Of a stretch of 64,000 bases of DNA, positions 11,607 through 17,730 are shown one piece after another. Below the pieces are notes generated by a model. The model made no database searches. It was not told the origin of the DNA and worked only from the letters and a program-made list of their open reading frames with translations. The stretch comes from an uncultured bacterium (GTDB lineage: Bacteria > Fidelibacterota > Marinisomatia > Marinisomatales > UBA1611): contig CALSPG010000001.1 of the NCBI GenBank assembly GCA_943788175.1, forward strand, positions 128,001 through 192,000. The letters run 5' to 3'. Position 1 is the first letter of the stretch; the number at the start of each line of letters is the position of its first letter. Both the position numbers and the translations under genes were made by a program.

Positions 11607-12863
11607 GTGATTTCAGTTAAGGAAAAAAAAAGGTTAAGTAAGCTTTCTAAATTATTATACATAGCTAGTAAAAAAATAAAAATATTGAGGCACATAGCCT
11701 GGCCTTTAGAAGTTAAAAACAAGTTCTTTAAAGAAAGTTGTCAAAAACTTCCTGTTCATACTTATCCCTTACATGATGATTCTGAATTAAAACTTATACT
11801 AAATGAAACAGATAAATATTTTGGTGATACTTTATATGACTCTTGGTTAAAAACAAAAGCTAAAGAAATTAAAAAAAATTCTGCATTACTAAAAGCATGT
11901 GGTACTAAAGAATTTTTTAATATCTCCTCTGATATATATGGATTACCATCAACCCCAATCCATGACAATGTTACAAAACCAATTAATCTTTCTAATCAGT
12001 TTGAAAATATAATTGGTGCCATTAAAAATAGTAAAATCAAATTAAAACCAAGCCCTTCTTTAAGTTCAAGTCAGGTTGCGAAAAAAATAGATGATAAAGT
12101 AAAATTGTACTTTAATGAACATGCACCTCAGGTTAAATTAGTCAAAAACCTGTCAGCGAAAGCGACAGCAACCTCAAAATACATTAGAATTCGCGAAGGT
12201 AGTGAGTTTGATCAAGCAGATATTAATCAACTCTTAAATCATGAAGCATATATACATGTTGCGACCACTATAAACGGTAGAAAACAGAACAATATGAAAA
12301 TTTTAGGCGCGAATTATGGCTCTGTTACTAAAACTCAGGAAGGTTTAGCCGTTTTTTCTGAGTTCATATCTGGTTCAATTGATGTTGATAGACTTAAACG
12401 AATTTCAGACCGTACAATAGCAATCCAGATGGCCATTGAGGGTGCAGATTTTATTGATGTCTATAATTATTTCATAAAAGAAGGAGTATCAATGGACCAA
12501 GCTTTTGAAAACAGTAGAAGAGTTTTCAGAGGAGGTCTCCTAGCCGGTGGTGCTCCATTTACAAAAGATTTAGTTTATTTAGATGGTTTCATCAGAGTAT
12601 TCAACTTTCTTCGAAGCGCTATCTCATTAGGGAAAATTGAATGTATTGAACTTTTATTCTCGGGAAAAATGGATTTAGATGATATGCCAGTAATATATGG
12701 TCTATACAAGGATGGTCTTATTCGTAAACCTGATTTTATTCCACCTTGGGCAAATAACTTGAATTATCTTATTTGCTTTTTTTCTGTTTCAATGTTTATA
12801 GAAGATATTAATTATAGTAATGTTTCTAAACATTATGATTTATTACTTAATAGTATTAATTAA
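11607..12863 (+). CDS. DUF1704 / QEGLA-motif metallopeptidase (MATCAP-like Tyr/Phe carboxypeptidase domain)
   Basis: HExxxH (HEAYIH), TQEGLAVFSE, RVFRGG, FTKDLVYLDG. Confidence 0.85.
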   Translation: MISVKEKKRLSKLSKLLYIASKKIKILRHIAWPLEVKNKFFKESCQKLPVHTYPLHDDSELKLILNETDKYFGDTLYDSWLKTKAKEIKKNSALLKACGTKEFFNISSDIYGLPSTPIHDNVTKPINLSNQFENIIGAIKNSKIKLKPSPSLSSSQVAKKIDDKVKLYFNEHAPQVKLVKNLSAKATATSKYIRIREGSEFDQADINQLLNHEAYIHVATTINGRKQNNMKILGANYGSVTKTQEGLAVFSEFISGSIDVDRLKRISDRTIAIQMAIEGADFIDVYNYFIKEGVSMDQAFENSRRVFRGGLLAGGAPFTKDLVYLDGFIRVFNFLRSAISLGKIECIELLFSGKMDLDDMPVIYGLYKDGLIRKPDFIPPWANNLNYLICFFSVSMFIEDINYSNVSKHYDLLLNSIN

Positions 12864-14587
12864 ATTATTTCTTTTATTTTTTCTATCATTTTTTGAAACT
12901 CTTGTTCATCAAATAATCTTGTTAAGAAAACTATTTTTCCATTTTTATCAATCACTACATTTCTAGTAATTCCAGCATTTACGTGCGCAAATTTTGAAAA
13001 GTGTTTCGCACCCGGGTCTAAAGCAATTGGGTATGTAATACCTGTCTTTCTCTTGAAAGCTTTCACGACTTCGATAGGTTCATCTCGATCTATACCTATC
13101 AAAACGAAGTCATCGTTTTTAAATTTTTGCCAGACGTCATTCTCGAGGTGAGGCATCTCTCTAATACATACAGAACACCAGCTAGCTGTAAACTGAAGTA
13201 CGACTACCTTTCCAAGGTAGTCAGATAGTTGTACATTTGTATCATTGATTAAGTCTAAAGATAAATCAGGAGCGGTATCTCCAATTGAGACAATATAACC
13301 TCTTTCATCGTATCCATTTCTGTTAATTGCCCTTTTAAAAGCTAAACTTCCATTTCTTAGTTTTCTTATTTGAGTATTAAAATCAACTTCGTAAAGGCCA
13401 AACTTCATGGAGTACCCTTCCGCCCATTCAAAATTATCCATCAATGACCAATAAAAATAACCTTGAATATCCATTCCATCATCTATAGACTTGTTTAAAG
13501 CATATAAATATCTATTAATAAAAGTTTCTCGTCGATCATCTTTATCATCAGCTATTCCATTTTCAGTTACTATAATGGGTATGTTAAGCTTACTTATATC
13601 ATTCAAAGCTTTATAAAAACCTTCAGGGTAGATTGAATATGGCATATCTGTTTGGATATCTTGCTTTCTTTTTTCGAAGGTAAATGGAGACGTTGGACTT
13701 AGGTGTCCTTTAACATGCCACCTAGAATAATAGTTTAAGCCTATAAAGTCTGCTGAACCAATAGCATTTGAATTTGAATCTGATATGTTTACCATTCCCG
13801 GTAAATAAAAATTAAACTTTCCATTTAAAAATAAATCAATCGTACTATTAGTAAAAATATCATTCAAAATTTTACTAAAATACCAATCAAGTAAATGCCA
13901 TCTTCTTAAAGGGTCAAATTGAGTAATGTTTTTAACCAAACCTATCTGAGCAATCTCACCATTTTCTAGCCCTTTTAAATGATGAAATGCCTTTATATGA
14001 GTAAATAATAAATTTCGCATCACAATTCCAGCGAGTTTTGGATCTTTTTTCCCCGGAGGGAAAACACCATAGAAATAACCTTGAGAGACGTAGACGGCAG
14101 GTTCATTAATTGTGCACCAGTATTTAACAATATCTGATAAATGATTAAAAACAATTTCAGAAAATTCAATAAAATGATCGATGTTTTCTTCTTTTTCAAA
14201 CCCACCTAGTTTTTCAAACCATATTGGGTTTGTGAAGTGATGCAAAGTAACAACAGGAGTTAGCCCAGAATCAATTAGTGCTATACATACATCACGATAG
14301 TGATCTAATGCATTTTCATCAATTAATCCTTCTTTTGGTACTATTTTACTCCATTCAACGGAAAACCTATATGCATTTACTCCTAGTTCTTTCATTAAAG
14401 AAATATCATCTCTGTACATATCCCAATGGTTGGCTGCCTCGCCAGATTTATCATTGTTATGTATATTAGATTTGCCGTTTTGGTTTAAACTATTTTCCCA
14501 TTCATACCAGTTGTTATTTGTATTGTTTCCTTCGACTTGGTGGGCTGCAGTAGATGTTCCCCATATGAAGTTTTCAGGAAAAAACAT
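12860..14587 (-). CDS. GH1 beta-glucosidase fused to a C-terminal TlpA/ResA-like thioredoxin domain; the true start is probably TTG 14714 with a frameshifted N-terminal anchor
   Basis: FIWGTSTAAHQVEG, YRFSVEWS, acid/base TINEP, nucleophile VTENG, WSLMDNFEWAEG, then GDTAPD..FTASWCSVC..EMPHL..TRNVVID. Confidence 0.92.
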   Translation of the reverse strand: MFFPENFIWGTSTAAHQVEGNNTNNNWYEWENSLNQNGKSNIHNNDKSGEAANHWDMYRDDISLMKELGVNAYRFSVEWSKIVPKEGLIDENALDHYRDVCIALIDSGLTPVVTLHHFTNPIWFEKLGGFEKEENIDHFIEFSEIVFNHLSDIVKYWCTINEPAVYVSQGYFYGVFPPGKKDPKLAGIVMRNLLFTHIKAFHHLKGLENGEIAQIGLVKNITQFDPLRRWHLLDWYFSKILNDIFTNSTIDLFLNGKFNFYLPGMVNISDSNSNAIGSADFIGLNYYSRWHVKGHLSPTSPFTFEKRKQDIQTDMPYSIYPEGFYKALNDISKLNIPIIVTENGIADDKDDRRETFINRYLYALNKSIDDGMDIQGYFYWSLMDNFEWAEGYSMKFGLYEVDFNTQIRKLRNGSLAFKRAINRNGYDERGYIVSIGDTAPDLSLDLINDTNVQLSDYLGKVVVLQFTASWCSVCIREMPHLENDVWQKFKNDDFVLIGIDRDEPIEVVKAFKRKTGITYPIALDPGAKHFSKFAHVNAGITRNVVIDKNGKIVFLTRLFDEQEFQKMIEKIKEII

Positions 14588-14710: not shown

Positions 14711-15664
14711 TCAAATATTAAATCCTTTTTCTTTCATCCAATCATCATTTGGAAACTTTGTCATATAGTTACGAATGCCATCTGCTAGAACAACAAGGCA
14801 ATTTTGTCCTTTTTTAAGATTGGAAGCTGCTTGCAATGCTGCAACCATAGTTGCCCCACAAGAACCGCCACAGAGTAGTCCTTCTTCTTTTATAATTCTT
14901 CTGGCCATAATGAAAGATTCTTCATCTTTTGTTTTTATGTATCGATCTACTAAACTATTATCTAAAACATCTGGAAAAAAATCATAACCTATGCCTTCGA
15001 CTAAATAAGAACTAATTTCATCTCCACCGCCTAAAATAGAACCTTCTGGATCAGCACCAACAATTGATATATGAGGTATCTTTTCTTTTAACCTTTTTGC
15101 TACGCCTGTTATAGTTCCGCCTGTTCCTACAGACATAACTACCATATCAAGATTATCAGAAAAGTCTTTAATAATTTCTTCAGCAGTACCATAATAATGT
15201 GCATCAGGGTTTGCCGGGTTAGAATATTGATCTAAAATGTGAGAATTCTCCAATTCGCTATTAAGCTTTTTCGCAACTGAAATATGACTTTCAGGGTCAC
15301 TTGATAAAGCTTCAGTTGGTGTTCGAACAATTTTTGCACCTAATGCCTCAATAGCAATTTGTTTTTCTTGACTCATTTTTTCTGGCATGATAATAATACA
15401 TTTATATCCTTTTACAGCAGCAGCAAGAGCAATTCCTTGGCCAGTATTTCCAGAAGTAGGCTCAATTAAAGTATCTCCAGGCTTAATTCTGCCAGACTTT
15501 TCGGCTTCTTCAACCATATTCCATCCTATTCTGTCCTTAATAGAACCACCGGGGTTAAAAAACTCACATTTAGCATATACGTTGCAGTCTAGATTTTTCG
15601 CAATTTTATTTATTTTCACTATTGGAGTGTCTCCAATAGTGCTCAAAACATTATCATGTATCAT
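14711..15664 (-). CDS. Cystathionine beta-synthase-like PLP enzyme (catalytic core only)
   Basis: [57 protein letters not shown]. Confidence 0.88.
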
Positions 15665-15759
15665 TTATTTATATTATTTGGTTAAAAATTTGTTCTATAT
15701 TAGTTAATACTCTTCACAATATAAATGTCTTCTTTCTAAAATTATACAACCAAACTATT

Positions 15760-17235
15760 ATGGTTAATCAATCGCATAAACTTAGTGGCCCATTTTTAAT
15801 AGAGCTAAAAAATAAATTTCGAGAAATAGCTGGGTCAGATAATAAAATTGATAGATTAGAGTTTAAAGATAGTCTAGTAATTGAAAACGAAAATATTATT
15901 AATCGCATATTTGATATTTTTGATAAAGATGAAAATAATCTTTTAGATATAAATGAATTTATTAATGGTATTGAAACTTTAATTAAAAGCACTAATGCTC
16001 AAAAAATAAAATTTGCTTTTGATATACATGACTTTGATGGAAGCGGAGATATCGATAAAGATGAATTAAAAATATTGATAAAAAACATTCTTATTGAAAA
16101 CAACTTAGATTTTGATACAAATCAAGTTGATTTGATTGTTGATGAATTTTTTAGGTATGGGGATATTGATAAGAATGGAAGAATTGATTTTAATGAGTTT
16201 TTAAACTTAATAAAAAAATATCCTGATTTAATAAATAGTCTAGCTGCTAACCCTGTAGCATGGTTTAGAAGTAATAAGTCAAGGAAAGATTATGAAACTA
16301 CTAAGAAGGTTGTTTCAAAAATTAGTAGGGTACAAGTTCAAAATTTAAATGTATTGCAATGGCTCTTAGTCCCAAGGTTGATATATTTTTATAATATTAT
16401 TATAAATCGAAATAAGAACAATGAATTGATTTCTATTAAATCTTTAAAAATTTTACCCGAAAAAAATATATCGTTTTCATTTAATAAACCTAGCTGGTTT
16501 AAGTTTCAAGCAGGTGATTATGTATATATAAATTGTCCCTGGGTTTCAAGTTTGCAGTGGTATCCTTTTAATATAATAAGCTCTACGAATGATAATTCAG
16601 TACTGTTAAATATTAAGGCAGAAGGGGCGTGGCCCCAAAAAATATATAATAAAACATTATCTATGTTGAGTAATAAAAATGTTGAAAATCTGAAAATAAG
16701 AATTGACGGCCCATTTGGATCATCGAGTGATAGAATTTTACAATCTGAAAATTTAATAATTATTGCAGAAGATATGGGCGTGGCAAAATTTGCATCTGTT
16801 CTTCAAGATATCTATCATAGAACAAAATCAAATCAAATTCATTCTAGAGTAAAAACTCTTAATTTTATTTGGCTTTGTAGTGAAGGTAATTATTTTGAAT
16901 GGTTTAAAAAAATGCTTCAAGAATTAGATAAGAGTTTTAATATAGACAACTTTAATTATAGTATTTATTTTTTGAATAGAAATGCATCCGATTTGCCAAG
17001 AGACATGCTCTACGTCTCTAAGGATGTTTTTAAAAAAGAATTTAAAATTAATCTATTACCCGGTCTTAAAAACAAATATCATATCGGTACTCCGTCATTA
17101 CAAAAAAAATTATCTGATATTATTTCAGAGCAAGGTAATGGAAAGTTTGATTTGTTTTTTGCAGGATCTAGAAAAATAAAGACAAAAATAAAATCTGCTT
17201 GTAAAGAATTAGGTATAAACTTTAATAATAGTTAA
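15760..17235 (+). CDS. NOX5-like protein: 4 EF-hands plus NADPH-oxidase dehydrogenase fold, lacking the heme transmembrane domain
   Basis: EF loops DKDENNLLDINE, DFDGSGDIDKDE, DIDKNGRIDFNE; NOX-type GDYVYINCP..WYPF, IDGPFG, FIW..FEWF. Confidence 0.85.
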   Translation: MVNQSHKLSGPFLIELKNKFREIAGSDNKIDRLEFKDSLVIENENIINRIFDIFDKDENNLLDINEFINGIETLIKSTNAQKIKFAFDIHDFDGSGDIDKDELKILIKNILIENNLDFDTNQVDLIVDEFFRYGDIDKNGRIDFNEFLNLIKKYPDLINSLAANPVAWFRSNKSRKDYETTKKVVSKISRVQVQNLNVLQWLLVPRLIYFYNIIINRNKNNELISIKSLKILPEKNISFSFNKPSWFKFQAGDYVYINCPWVSSLQWYPFNIISSTNDNSVLLNIKAEGAWPQKIYNKTLSMLSNKNVENLKIRIDGPFGSSSDRILQSENLIIIAEDMGVAKFASVLQDIYHRTKSNQIHSRVKTLNFIWLCSEGNYFEWFKKMLQELDKSFNIDNFNYSIYFLNRNASDLPRDMLYVSKDVFKKEFKINLLPGLKNKYHIGTPSLQKKLSDIISEQGNGKFDLFFAGSRKIKTKIKSACKELGINFNNS

Positions 17236-17246
17236 TAGTATAATTT

Positions 17247-17284
17247 ATAATTGGGAGGAGAGTTTATTCTCTCCTCCCAATTAT
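17247..17284. terminator. Bidirectional intrinsic terminator between the convergent NOX5-like gene and hsp20
   Basis: Perfect 16-bp inverted repeat ataattgggaggagag / ctctcctcccaattat with a 6-nt loop and AT-rich flanks. Confidence 0.85.
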
Positions 17285-17292
17285 TTAATAGA

Positions 17293-17730
17293 TTATTTAA
17301 TTGATATTAATCTATTATTTGGTTTTTCTTCTTCTGCTTTAGGTATTGTAATAATAAGAGTCCCATCTTTAAAATTTGCTGATATCTTATCTTCTATTAT
17401 CGATTGTGGCAGTTTAAAAGATCTAGCGAATTTCCCAACTTTACGCTCACTGTAATGATAGTCATCGTTATCCTCTTCGTTATCTAGCTTTTTATCCCCT
17501 TTAATTATGAGAATATTTTCTTCTACCTTAGCCTCAATATTACTTTTTTTAACTCCCGGCATATCTGCAACTAAAATATATGATTTGCTATTCTCTTTTA
17601 TGTCTACTAATGGTTGCCATTCATTGTTATAAACCTCCTTGTCGTTTACATTATAGGTCGCATTATCTAATATATTTGGCATTCTATTTAAAAATGATAC
17701 TGGTTTATATCTCCAATTAACTATGTTCAT
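17293..17730 (-). CDS. Hsp20/alpha-crystallin small heat shock protein
   Basis: WQPLVDIKE, ADMPGV, SER..GKFARSFKLP, ANFKDGTLIITIPK; SD AGGAGA upstream. Confidence 0.96.
   Translation of the reverse strand: MNIVNWRYKPVSFLNRMPNILDNATYNVNDKEVYNNEWQPLVDIKENSKSYILVADMPGVKKSNIEAKVEENILIIKGDKKLDNEEDNDDYHYSERKVGKFARSFKLPQSIIEDKISANFKDGTLIITIPKAEEEKPNNRLISIK

Follow-up and report, generated by a model that had tools for sequence, protein, structure and literature searches.

NOX enzymes (NADPH oxidases) are defined by transmembrane electron transfer via two hemes. What, then, is left to do for a NOX relative from which the heme-carrying membrane domain is missing, with its EF-hands and its dehydrogenase in place? 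The question is raised by a gene at positions 15760..17235 (+) of a stretch of 64,000 nucleotides (the window) on contig CALSPG010000001.1 of an uncultured Marinisomatales bacterium. An earlier annotation, made without database searches and here called the sequence-only reading, had taken this gene for a NOX5 that has lost transmembrane helices TM1-TM5 and kept its EF-hands. Our analysis shows a functional gene that has been inherited vertically and derives from a bacterial NOX5-like gene. Its open reading frame is intact and encodes 491 amino acids (aa), as had been stated, and starts with ATG. A Pfam scan matched EF-hand families across approximately residues 45-153 (EF-hand_7, 2.7e-15), FAD_binding_8 (5.8e-21) and NAD_binding_6 (6.1e-15), and did not find Ferric_reduct (PF01794) in the 491-aa protein, which is the pattern that had been expected. 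Both the N-terminal four-EF-hand domain that marks the NOX5 subfamily (residues 17-172 against NOX5 14-169) and the FNR-like C-terminal dehydrogenase fold of the NOX family, composed of FAD_binding_8 and NAD_binding_6, are present. Among solved structures, the top phmmer match was human NOX5 (6sz5_B, 1.6e-56), aligned in three colinear stretches that pair residues 17-172, 197-298 and 304-488 with NOX5 14-169, 372-475 and 510-714. Because these stretches skip NOX5 residues ~170-371, about 200 residues, holding TM1-5, have no counterpart in the window protein. All the colinear NOX5 pairs that had been quoted are found in this alignment (YPDLINSLAANPVAW, LQWLLVPRLIY, LLNIKAEGAW, IDGPFG, FIW..FEWF and DLFFAGS), and the spacing between W168 and W201 is indeed 33 residues. 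The dehydrogenase crystal sequence of Cylindrospermum stagnale NOX5 (csNOX5) was matched by phmmer at 5.8e-44. An AlphaFold2 model of the 491-aa protein (mean predicted local distance difference test score, pLDDT, 77.8; predicted template-modelling score 0.68) ranked human NOX5 first in Foldseek and superposed on the csNOX5 dehydrogenase with a target-normalised template-modelling score of 0.84-0.85 and a root-mean-square deviation of 3.0. The NCBIfam models for Fre and LuxG scored 25-31 bits, far under their cut-offs of 230-340.

The four heme-ligand His columns are invariant in full-length relatives. Three of them are gaps in all 24 membrane-domain-less rows aligned, and the fourth is Q in 18, E in 3, H in 2 and D in 1; it is Q194 in the window protein, and in this alignment the final residues of TM5 may have been kept. 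TM1-5 are replaced by a short linker, which is modelled as disordered (pLDDT <50 for residues 172-203), and the remnant of TM6 is modelled as a helix at low confidence, so that residues 172-218 have no confident placement. This remnant is the sole hydrophobic stretch of the protein, with a best 19-residue Kyte-Doolittle mean of 1.28; in the family, the median is 1.48 and 27 of 91 rows reach at least 1.6, whereas seven full-length proteins have 2-6 segments each at 1.6 or above. In the part of the bacterial NOX survey that sets out its criteria (Hajjar et al. 2017, PMC5676040), a NOX has six transmembrane helices, four heme His in TM3 and TM5, and Ferric_reduct, and candidates were filtered by a FAD motif, an NADPH motif and the four heme His. 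The window protein passes none of these three filters: where the FAD motif reads H[PSA]F[TS][LIMV] it has YPFNI, at the NADPH motif it has DMGVAK, and in place of six helices with two bis-His motifs there is at most one borderline hydrophobic segment. We infer that the protein is soluble or peripherally attached to the membrane. Since there is no heme-carrying membrane domain, there can be no electron transfer across the membrane, and the protein is therefore not an NADPH oxidase in the NOX sense; judged by its sequence, it derives from the NOX5 family without belonging to it functionally. In this respect, Pfam, phmmer and the His-column alignment agree with the sequence-only reading of a NOX5 derivative without a heme-binding membrane domain.

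An assembly that had collapsed across 16270-16350 could mimic such a deletion. However, independent contigs cross this region without a joint or an indel: DNA contig X5 record 22 (2,598 nucleotides) runs over 15400-17400 without gaps and differs at 6 letters, and DNA contig X2 record 15 spans 15564-16444 with 0 differences. The stretch is present in 14 DNA runs from 8 studies at 0.88-0.92 of sampled words. In the RNA libraries of one study, contigs extend over most of the gene and across the junction (X15 record 5, 16228-16524; X16 record 10, 16117-16349), which is a hint of transcription only, since such libraries can hold DNA. Selection was estimated as omega (dN/dS) from pairwise NG86 values. 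Within the window's subclade, omega was 0.128, 0.117 and 0.125, and every domain stayed below 0.25 (EF-hands 0.065-0.10, linker 0.09-0.19, FAD 0.08-0.16, NAD 0.11-0.24, the highest NAD-domain value being 0.243 in one pair); for comparison, NAD-domain omega was 0.13-0.14 in sister clades with intact motifs, and five neighbouring genes gave 0.029-0.182 in the same genome pair. Thus, the intact gene is under purifying selection with an omega of about 0.12, and the orthologues in relatives all lack TM1-5, which is not the picture of a neutrally decaying copy beside orthologues that retain these helices.

How widespread is this form? A word-indexed search returned 65 proteins, of which the 62 listed without Ferric_reduct share 38-91% identity with the window protein and are mostly 484-499 aa long; the other three carry Ferric_reduct, the best at E 1e-21 only. 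One source annotates a member as 'Ca2+-binding EF-hand superfamily protein/NAD(P)H-flavin reductase'. When the library was clustered at 50% identity, only P0066 and P0068 were other full-length clusters of the same architecture, and the next relatives, with at most 33% identity, combine EF-hands, Ferric_reduct, FAD and NAD domains in 650-690 aa. Among 39 loci in species-representative genomes, 18 are titled Marinimicrobia or Neomarinimicrobiota (now Fidelibacterota at NCBI) and 21 carry no phylum; ESM Atlas neighbours agree with the Marinimicrobia placement. Near-full-length matches without internal stops were found in 18 of 24 other genomes of the same GTDB family (f1). Three genomes of this family had no match (G006, G018, G023), one matched only via its full-length NOX5 (G009), one matched weakly (G013), and none of 16 genomes from 15 other families of the order Marinisomatales matched. 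The membrane-domain-less form is thus confined to one Marinisomatales family among the genomes searched. In one further family genome that is 60% complete (G024), the match at C73:1275-2188 is split by one TAG, possibly a broken copy or an assembly problem.

Full-length relatives do occur in this family. Ferric_reduct passes its cut-off in 3 of 41 family genomes (G009, G048, G051) and gives any match at E <= 0.001 in 5 of the 41, and it passes the cut-off in none of the five genomes of the window's genus (g1); the window's own, which is 92% complete, has no match. The proteins of G048 and G051 (663 and 662 aa) are NOX5-like over their full length, with EF-hands, Ferric_reduct, WHPFT, GIGVTP, FFCGH and a C-terminal ENF. 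A full-length paralog, for which the sequence-only reading had proposed to look, therefore exists in the family and is absent from the window's own genome. In a tree of 48 rows, the 24 membrane-domain-less proteins form one clade with full support (Shimodaira-Hasegawa-like approximate likelihood ratio test, SH-aLRT, 100) on a stem of 1.35 changes per column. The tree was used unrooted only, as its root is unreliable: three of the four 'noEF' outgroup rows fall inside the EF-bearing proteins, and the P0114 fragment is identical to the L053 protein. Within the tree, the link of this clade to the Marinimicrobial full-length genes and P0072/79/83 is weak (SH-aLRT 89, an open fork), and it is drawn mainly from EF-domain identity: among 20 full-length proteins, the EF domains nearest to those of the family are the Marinimicrobial ones, with identities of 0.45 and 0.44 against a mean of 0.33. 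We infer a single deletion, of TM1-5 with all four heme ligands, at or before the base of the bacterial family, which probably followed a duplication within the lineage. It left a calmodulin-like domain of four EF-hands, the basic linker, the weakly hydrophobic remnant of TM6 and the FNR-fold dehydrogenase.

If the protein does not pass electrons through a membrane, which of its two remaining parts has kept its function? For the EF-hands we used the canonical loop pattern D-x-[DNS]-x-[DNSG]-x6-[ED], that is, 12 residues with ligands at 1, 3, 5 and 12. EF2-4 fit this pattern, and EF1 does not, as had been proposed; EF1 of human NOX5 likewise deviates in the phmmer alignment. Ca2+ binding by EF2-4 is predicted from these canonical loops. 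Outside the NOX family, the best solved-structure matches of residues ~5-162 are EF-hand regulators of the calcineurin B and CBL type (E 1e-14 to 1e-18). These work as separate subunits that clamp a helix in their partner enzyme; in the window protein, the presumed target is part of the same chain as the EF domain. In NOX5, the Ca2+-bound C-lobe of the EF domain binds the dehydrogenase domain, and in csNOX5 two Asp residues, D611 and D631, are needed for Ca2+ activation, as described in parts of PMC7317449. The EF-binding region is present in the window protein, with D411 as the equivalent of D611 and N431 as the equivalent of D631. A complex prediction of the EF domain (1-168) with residues 169-491 and three Ca scored 0.14 and 0.11 (mark 0.32) in a run without controls and is not evidence either way.

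As to the dehydrogenase, the motif states given by the sequence-only reading, YPFN, AEDMGVAK, AGS (positions in Table 1) and a C-terminus ...FNNS without a terminal aromatic residue, were all correct. They were compared across 91 rows of the family, many of which are closely related. Position 268, the H of HPFT, is Y in 72 rows, F in 13 and H in 6; position 269 is P in 90 and 270 is F in all; position 271, the T of HPFT, is N in 83, T in 4, S in 3 and I in 1. The central Gly at 338 is kept in 80 rows (D in 7, S in 3, E in 1) and G340 in every row, whereas the motif Pro at 343 is replaced by K in 59 and R in 32. At the Cys position 468 there are 76 S, 7 C and 4 A, position 470 is P in 82 and S in 6, and the terminal F is found in 45 of 87 full-length family rows and is lost in genus g1. 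By comparison, seven full-length outgroups have H, P, F, T/S, G, G, P and C at positions 268-468, P (5) or S (2) at 470, and a terminal F in five. The family-wide forms are xPFN, GAGxG[IV]S[KR] and SGP, W267 is invariant and DGPxG is kept (29-row alignment), and the L047/P0060 lineage is near-canonical with WHPFT, GAGHGISK, YSGP and a terminal ...NF. A drifting site would not keep N in 83 rows and a basic residue in all 91, which argues that the site is under selection, and the cofactor sites of the family look remodelled and then held fixed, rather than decayed. The description of the motifs as eroded stands for the window's subclade (7 of 91 rows), in which GxG and CGP are lost, and not for the family-wide motifs, which look remodelled and selected. 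This subclade departs at 7 of the 124 columns that are conserved at >=90% in the other 84 rows (G77S, V163A, Y319F, G338D, I347V, W447L/I and P470S), and G338D, W447L/I and P470S fall in NADPH-binding motifs of NOX proteins. Judged from these motifs, its NADPH site is further eroded without relaxed selection. Measured against the flavin-reductase motif x-P-F-[ST] with its Gly loop, the family keeps P-F, has N for S/T and has an intact Gly loop in 80 of 91 rows, with D338 in the window. The NOX2 substitution H338Y reportedly depletes FAD. Column 374, which is E in 10, D in 6, S in 3 and K in 2 of the family members aligned, is the equivalent of NOX2 R446, and the latter presumably contacts the 2'-phosphate of NADPH; only if this role is right would the replacement suggest a preference for NADH.

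With a probability of roughly 0.45, we favour the interpretation that the protein is a flavin-dependent NAD(P)H dehydrogenase of the cytoplasm or the membrane periphery, switched by Ca2+, with the flavin-reductase (diaphorase) activity known from isolated NOX dehydrogenase domains. Ca2+ on EF2-4 would bring order to the EF domain, and this domain would in turn act on the dehydrogenase domain as it does in NOX5; the flavin would probably be a loosely bound cofactor or a co-substrate; and the nucleotide site would be a remodelled one, with K/R for the motif Pro, Ser for Cys and often an acidic residue for the conserved NOX Arg. The analogy comes from the dehydrogenase domain of Streptococcus pneumoniae NOX (SpNOX) and from E. 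coli Fre, which share the FNR fold without a heme domain and the Pro-Phe flavin pair. According to sections of PMC11031084, the isolated SpNOX domain is a flavin reductase that uses flavin as a co-substrate, its isoalloxazine is held by the Pro-Phe pair together with a C-terminal Phe, and the F397S variant loses flavin and yet is more active. By this analogy, the protein studied here may likewise reduce free flavins. Fre, a true FNR-type flavin reductase with RPFS and GGTGFSY, has Tyr at the position equivalent to 343, so a Pro is dispensable there; it has S where the family has N. Unlike the window protein, neither SpNOX nor Fre has EF-hands or Ca2+ control, and the window's subclade differs from both in lacking the central Gly of the nucleotide loop.

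Several results weigh against this interpretation, and most of them speak for a Ca2+-sensing pseudoenzyme, in which the dehydrogenase fold would no longer move electrons and would act as a scaffold or binding module. In most rows, other residues stand in the place of H, T, P and C of the four NOX cofactor motifs, and positions equivalent to these are hit by loss-of-activity substitutions in human NOX2: in the portion of PMC9674757 that lists them, T341K, G412E, P415H/L and C537R leave normal protein levels and no activity, and P415H blocks NADPH binding. Domain conservation is inverted: EF identity exceeds dehydrogenase identity in all 276 pairs within the membrane-domain-less family and in 6% of 190 pairs among full-length EF-hand NOX proteins (the pairs are not independent), with mean identities of 0.59 (EF), 0.45 (FAD) and 0.41 (NAD) in the former and 0.33, 0.42 and 0.41 in the latter. 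Between the two groups, EF identity is 0.33, the full-length level, and dehydrogenase identity is 0.26-0.30, well under that level. This pattern fits a key function in Ca2+ binding rather than in catalysis. Of 57 dehydrogenase columns conserved in NOX proteins (at >=85% in 24 Ferric_reduct-bearing relatives), the family keeps 22, has a different, fixed residue at 3 and varies at 32, while the EF domain retains 17 of its 22 conserved columns, and the stem of the family is long. In the window's subclade, G338D, W447L and P470S occurred with purifying selection unchanged; four of the seven subclade-specific changes (G338D, I347V, W447L/I, P470S) are in the NAD domain, three of them in NADPH motifs. 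Since NAD-domain omega in this D338-bearing subclade (0.11-0.24) is no higher than in its sisters, selection there is evidently independent of a canonical NADPH site. Also, the activating Asp residues of csNOX5 are poorly conserved (D611 equivalent D or E in only 43 of 91 rows, D631 equivalent D in only 32 and N in the window), so that coupling between the EF and dehydrogenase domains may differ from that in csNOX5.

On the other hand, the motif replacements are fixed and not scattered (N271 in 83/91, K/R343 in 91/91, S468 in 76/91), the isoalloxazine-sandwiching P269 and F270, the terminal F (45/87) and the nucleotide-loop Gly persist, one lineage (L047/P0060) is near-canonical, Fre works without Pro at 343, and no partner for a scaffold was identified. 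We therefore regard loss of catalysis across the whole family as a serious possibility to which we give less credence than to the flavin-dependent dehydrogenase. For the window's own subclade the chance of it is higher, because G338D, W447L, P470S and the lost terminal aromatic residue could mean that in this species catalysis is weakened, altered or lost, with Ca2+ binding kept. In a related proposal, the protein is a dedicated bacterial transducer of Ca2+ signals, retained as this SAR406 family diversified because its EF-hand domain would report cytoplasmic Ca2+; the dehydrogenase fold, redox-dead or a sensor of NAD(H) or flavin only, would form the output module and bind a partner or, via the TM6 remnant, the membrane. 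This is a real possibility, though less likely than not. If true, a free-living marine bacterium would have a conserved EF-hand signalling protein, which is rare, and NOX proteins would have their first natural pseudoenzyme.

The protein might instead be the cytoplasmic reductase half of a split system that feeds a separate membrane heme protein, as Fre does for MsrQ according to a passage of PMC11031084, and the conserved TM6 remnant and basic linker could hold it at the membrane. We consider this improbable: Ferric_reduct, which includes the YedZ/MsrQ type, has no match in the window's own genome and any match in only 5 of 41 family genomes, and no membrane cytochrome gene lies in the conserved neighbourhood, cytochrome b families beyond Ferric_reduct not having been searched. 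Still less credible is the role of regulatory or dominant-negative partner of a full-length NOX5, put forward by the sequence-only reading. The bacterial family does have full-length EF-hand NOX5-like genes, with EF domains that are the nearest to those studied here, and one genome (G048) carries both forms. However, only 3 of 41 genomes have the full-length genes, none of the five genus g1 genomes searched being among these, two of the carriers (G009, G051) have no match to the membrane-domain-less form, and both forms occur together in one of the five genomes checked for both. The membrane-domain-less form is thus kept almost everywhere without its supposed partner, which largely refutes this idea. 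An assembly collapse or a decaying pseudogene, for which nothing speaks beyond the slightly raised NAD omega of one pair (0.243), is next to impossible given the spanning contigs from other studies, intact reading frames, an omega inside the range of the neighbouring genes, and 37 distinct loci that share the architecture, including records without a 'MAG' label (L037, L044, L049).

Set beside NOX5 of human, C. stagnale and other bacteria, the window protein is colinear and has in common the four EF-hands, of which EF1 is non-canonical, the sequence of TM6, and FAD_binding_8 and NAD_binding_6 with the NOX-specific insertion that holds the EF-binding region. NOX5 differs in having TM1-5, the heme ligands, HPFT, G-x-G-x-G-x-T-P and CGP, where the window protein has YPFN, AEDMGVAK and AGS; moreover, the terminal Phe is lost in the window's genus, the EF domain of the family is better conserved than its dehydrogenase, and extracellular reduction of O2 is impossible. 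NOX5 epsilon and the EF-truncated csNOX5, natural and engineered forms described in parts of PMC7317449, also lack one whole module, and theirs is the opposite truncation, with the EF domain lost and the membrane and heme core kept. No description of a heme-less EF-hand NOX relative was found in the full-text literature, which did not cover the supplementary tables of PMC5676040 and PMC3591440, and no full text contained both 'Marinimicrobia' and 'NADPH oxidase'; the impression that this bacterial architecture is undescribed is thus supported within that scope. As Ferric_reduct and the heme His are absent, surveys that select for heme motifs or for the ferric reductase domain would exclude such proteins by design. 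A conserved natural form without the heme domain means that the EF-hand and dehydrogenase pair has a selectable function alone, and such a naturally soluble or near-soluble module would allow the Ca2+ gating of the NOX5 dehydrogenase to be studied without detergents. The series of motif loss, from the near-canonical L047 over the remodelled majority of genera to the eroded subclade of the window, can indicate which residues the dehydrogenase reaction needs. The gene also suggests that there is Ca2+-dependent regulation in SAR406/Marinimicrobia; in this ocean lineage, which is abundant and uncultured, Ca2+ signalling is, to our knowledge, essentially unexplored.

Table 1. Positions, in the window, of the gene, its domains and motifs, and its two flanking genes.
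Feature	Residues	Position	Strand	Remarks
Whole gene		15760..17235	+	EF-hand and NOX-type dehydrogenase protein without Ferric_reduct; open reading frame, Pfam, phmmer
EF-hand domain	16-168	15805..16263	+	colinear with human NOX5 14-169; best-conserved part in the family; omega 0.065-0.10
EF1 loop	24-35	15829..15864	+	AGSDNKIDRLEF; non-canonical
EF2 loop	55-66	15922..15957	+	canonical; same in 90/91 family rows
EF3 loop	91-102	16030..16065	+	canonical; same in 91/91 family rows
EF4 loop	135-146	16162..16197	+	canonical; same in 90/91 family rows
Basic linker	169-195	16264..16344	+	27 residues; replaces TM1-5; without His; conserved VQVQ at its end
TM6 remnant helix	196-218	16345..16413	+	LQWLLVPRLIYFYNII; aligned to NOX5 372 onward; helix in AlphaFold2 model; borderline hydrophobicity
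FAD_binding_8 domain	224-323	16429..16728	+	Pfam, Foldseek
YPFN	268-271	16561..16572	+	replaces NOX HPFT
NAD_binding_6 domain	330-481	16747..17202	+	Pfam, Foldseek
AEDMGVAK	336-343	16765..16788	+	replaces G-x-G-x-G-x-T-P; G338D subclade-only, K/R343 family-wide
AGS	468-470	17161..17169	+	replaces CGP; P470S subclade-specific
PALP-family cysteine-synthase-like gene		14711..15664	-	divergent, directly upstream in 35/37 loci
Hsp20		17293..17730	-	convergent, downstream in 31/37 loci

The gene order around the EF-hand and dehydrogenase (EF-DH) gene is conserved: a GH1-AhpC/TSA fusion (-), PALP (-), the EF-DH gene (+), Hsp20 (-) and TldD. The two loci without PALP upstream start at the EF-DH gene itself. 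The fusion, two genes upstream in 34 of 37 loci and at 12860-14587 (-) in the window, encodes 575 aa and joins a GH1 beta-glucosidase to a C-terminal AhpC/TSA-Redoxin (thioredoxin-fold) domain, an unusual pairing. In one subclade, a short-chain dehydrogenase (SDR) gene follows 0-6 nucleotides after the EF-DH gene (8 loci; L026 7494-8222 (+)), and in 7 loci a gene for an NADPH-dependent FMN reductase (FMN_red, PF03358) follows it (L018 3668-4192 (+)); each is an insertion in the interval that separates the EF-DH gene from Hsp20, and such neighbours lend weak contextual support to a redox role. In several loci, a gene for a ClpB-type AAA+ chaperone stands in the same interval (L037 8718-10811 (-)), which together with Hsp20 gives the downstream side a heat or stress character. 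A scan of 15500-17450 for promoters and terminators was uninformative (16 promoter-like sites against 14.6 expected, 0 terminators), and PADLOC reported 0 families and so no hint of a known defence system.

Most clade-B orthologues (L010, L021-L048) seem to start at TTG or GTG, with a conserved N-terminus L/V-I-N-x-S-K-K-L, so gene callers that accept only ATG would trim them by ~67 residues. A search for longer homologues returned one 1084-aa protein with Ferric_reduct and no other fusions, which is weak evidence. The short entries P0181, P0201 and P0206 look like fragments of proteins with transmembrane helices, and P0059 is a fragment of the membrane-domain-less family. P0192 (309 aa, Met start) consists of TM6 and the dehydrogenase only, with canonical WHPFT, GIGVTPF, YCGP and ...HF, and could be either a fragment or a further NOX form without a membrane domain. 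The full-length NOX5-like genes of G048 and G051 have a context that differs from that of the EF-DH locus, as they stand directly after a gene with four CxxCH motifs, whose protein has sub-cut-off matches to cytochrome c7 and NrfB-like families. The two genes adjoin, or overlap by a few bases, in G051 (L054 2566-3333 (-) and 577-2565 (-)) and G048 (L053 2565-3254 (-) and 577-2568 (-)), and may form an operon of NOX5 and a multiheme cytochrome c, which would suggest an acceptor other than O2.

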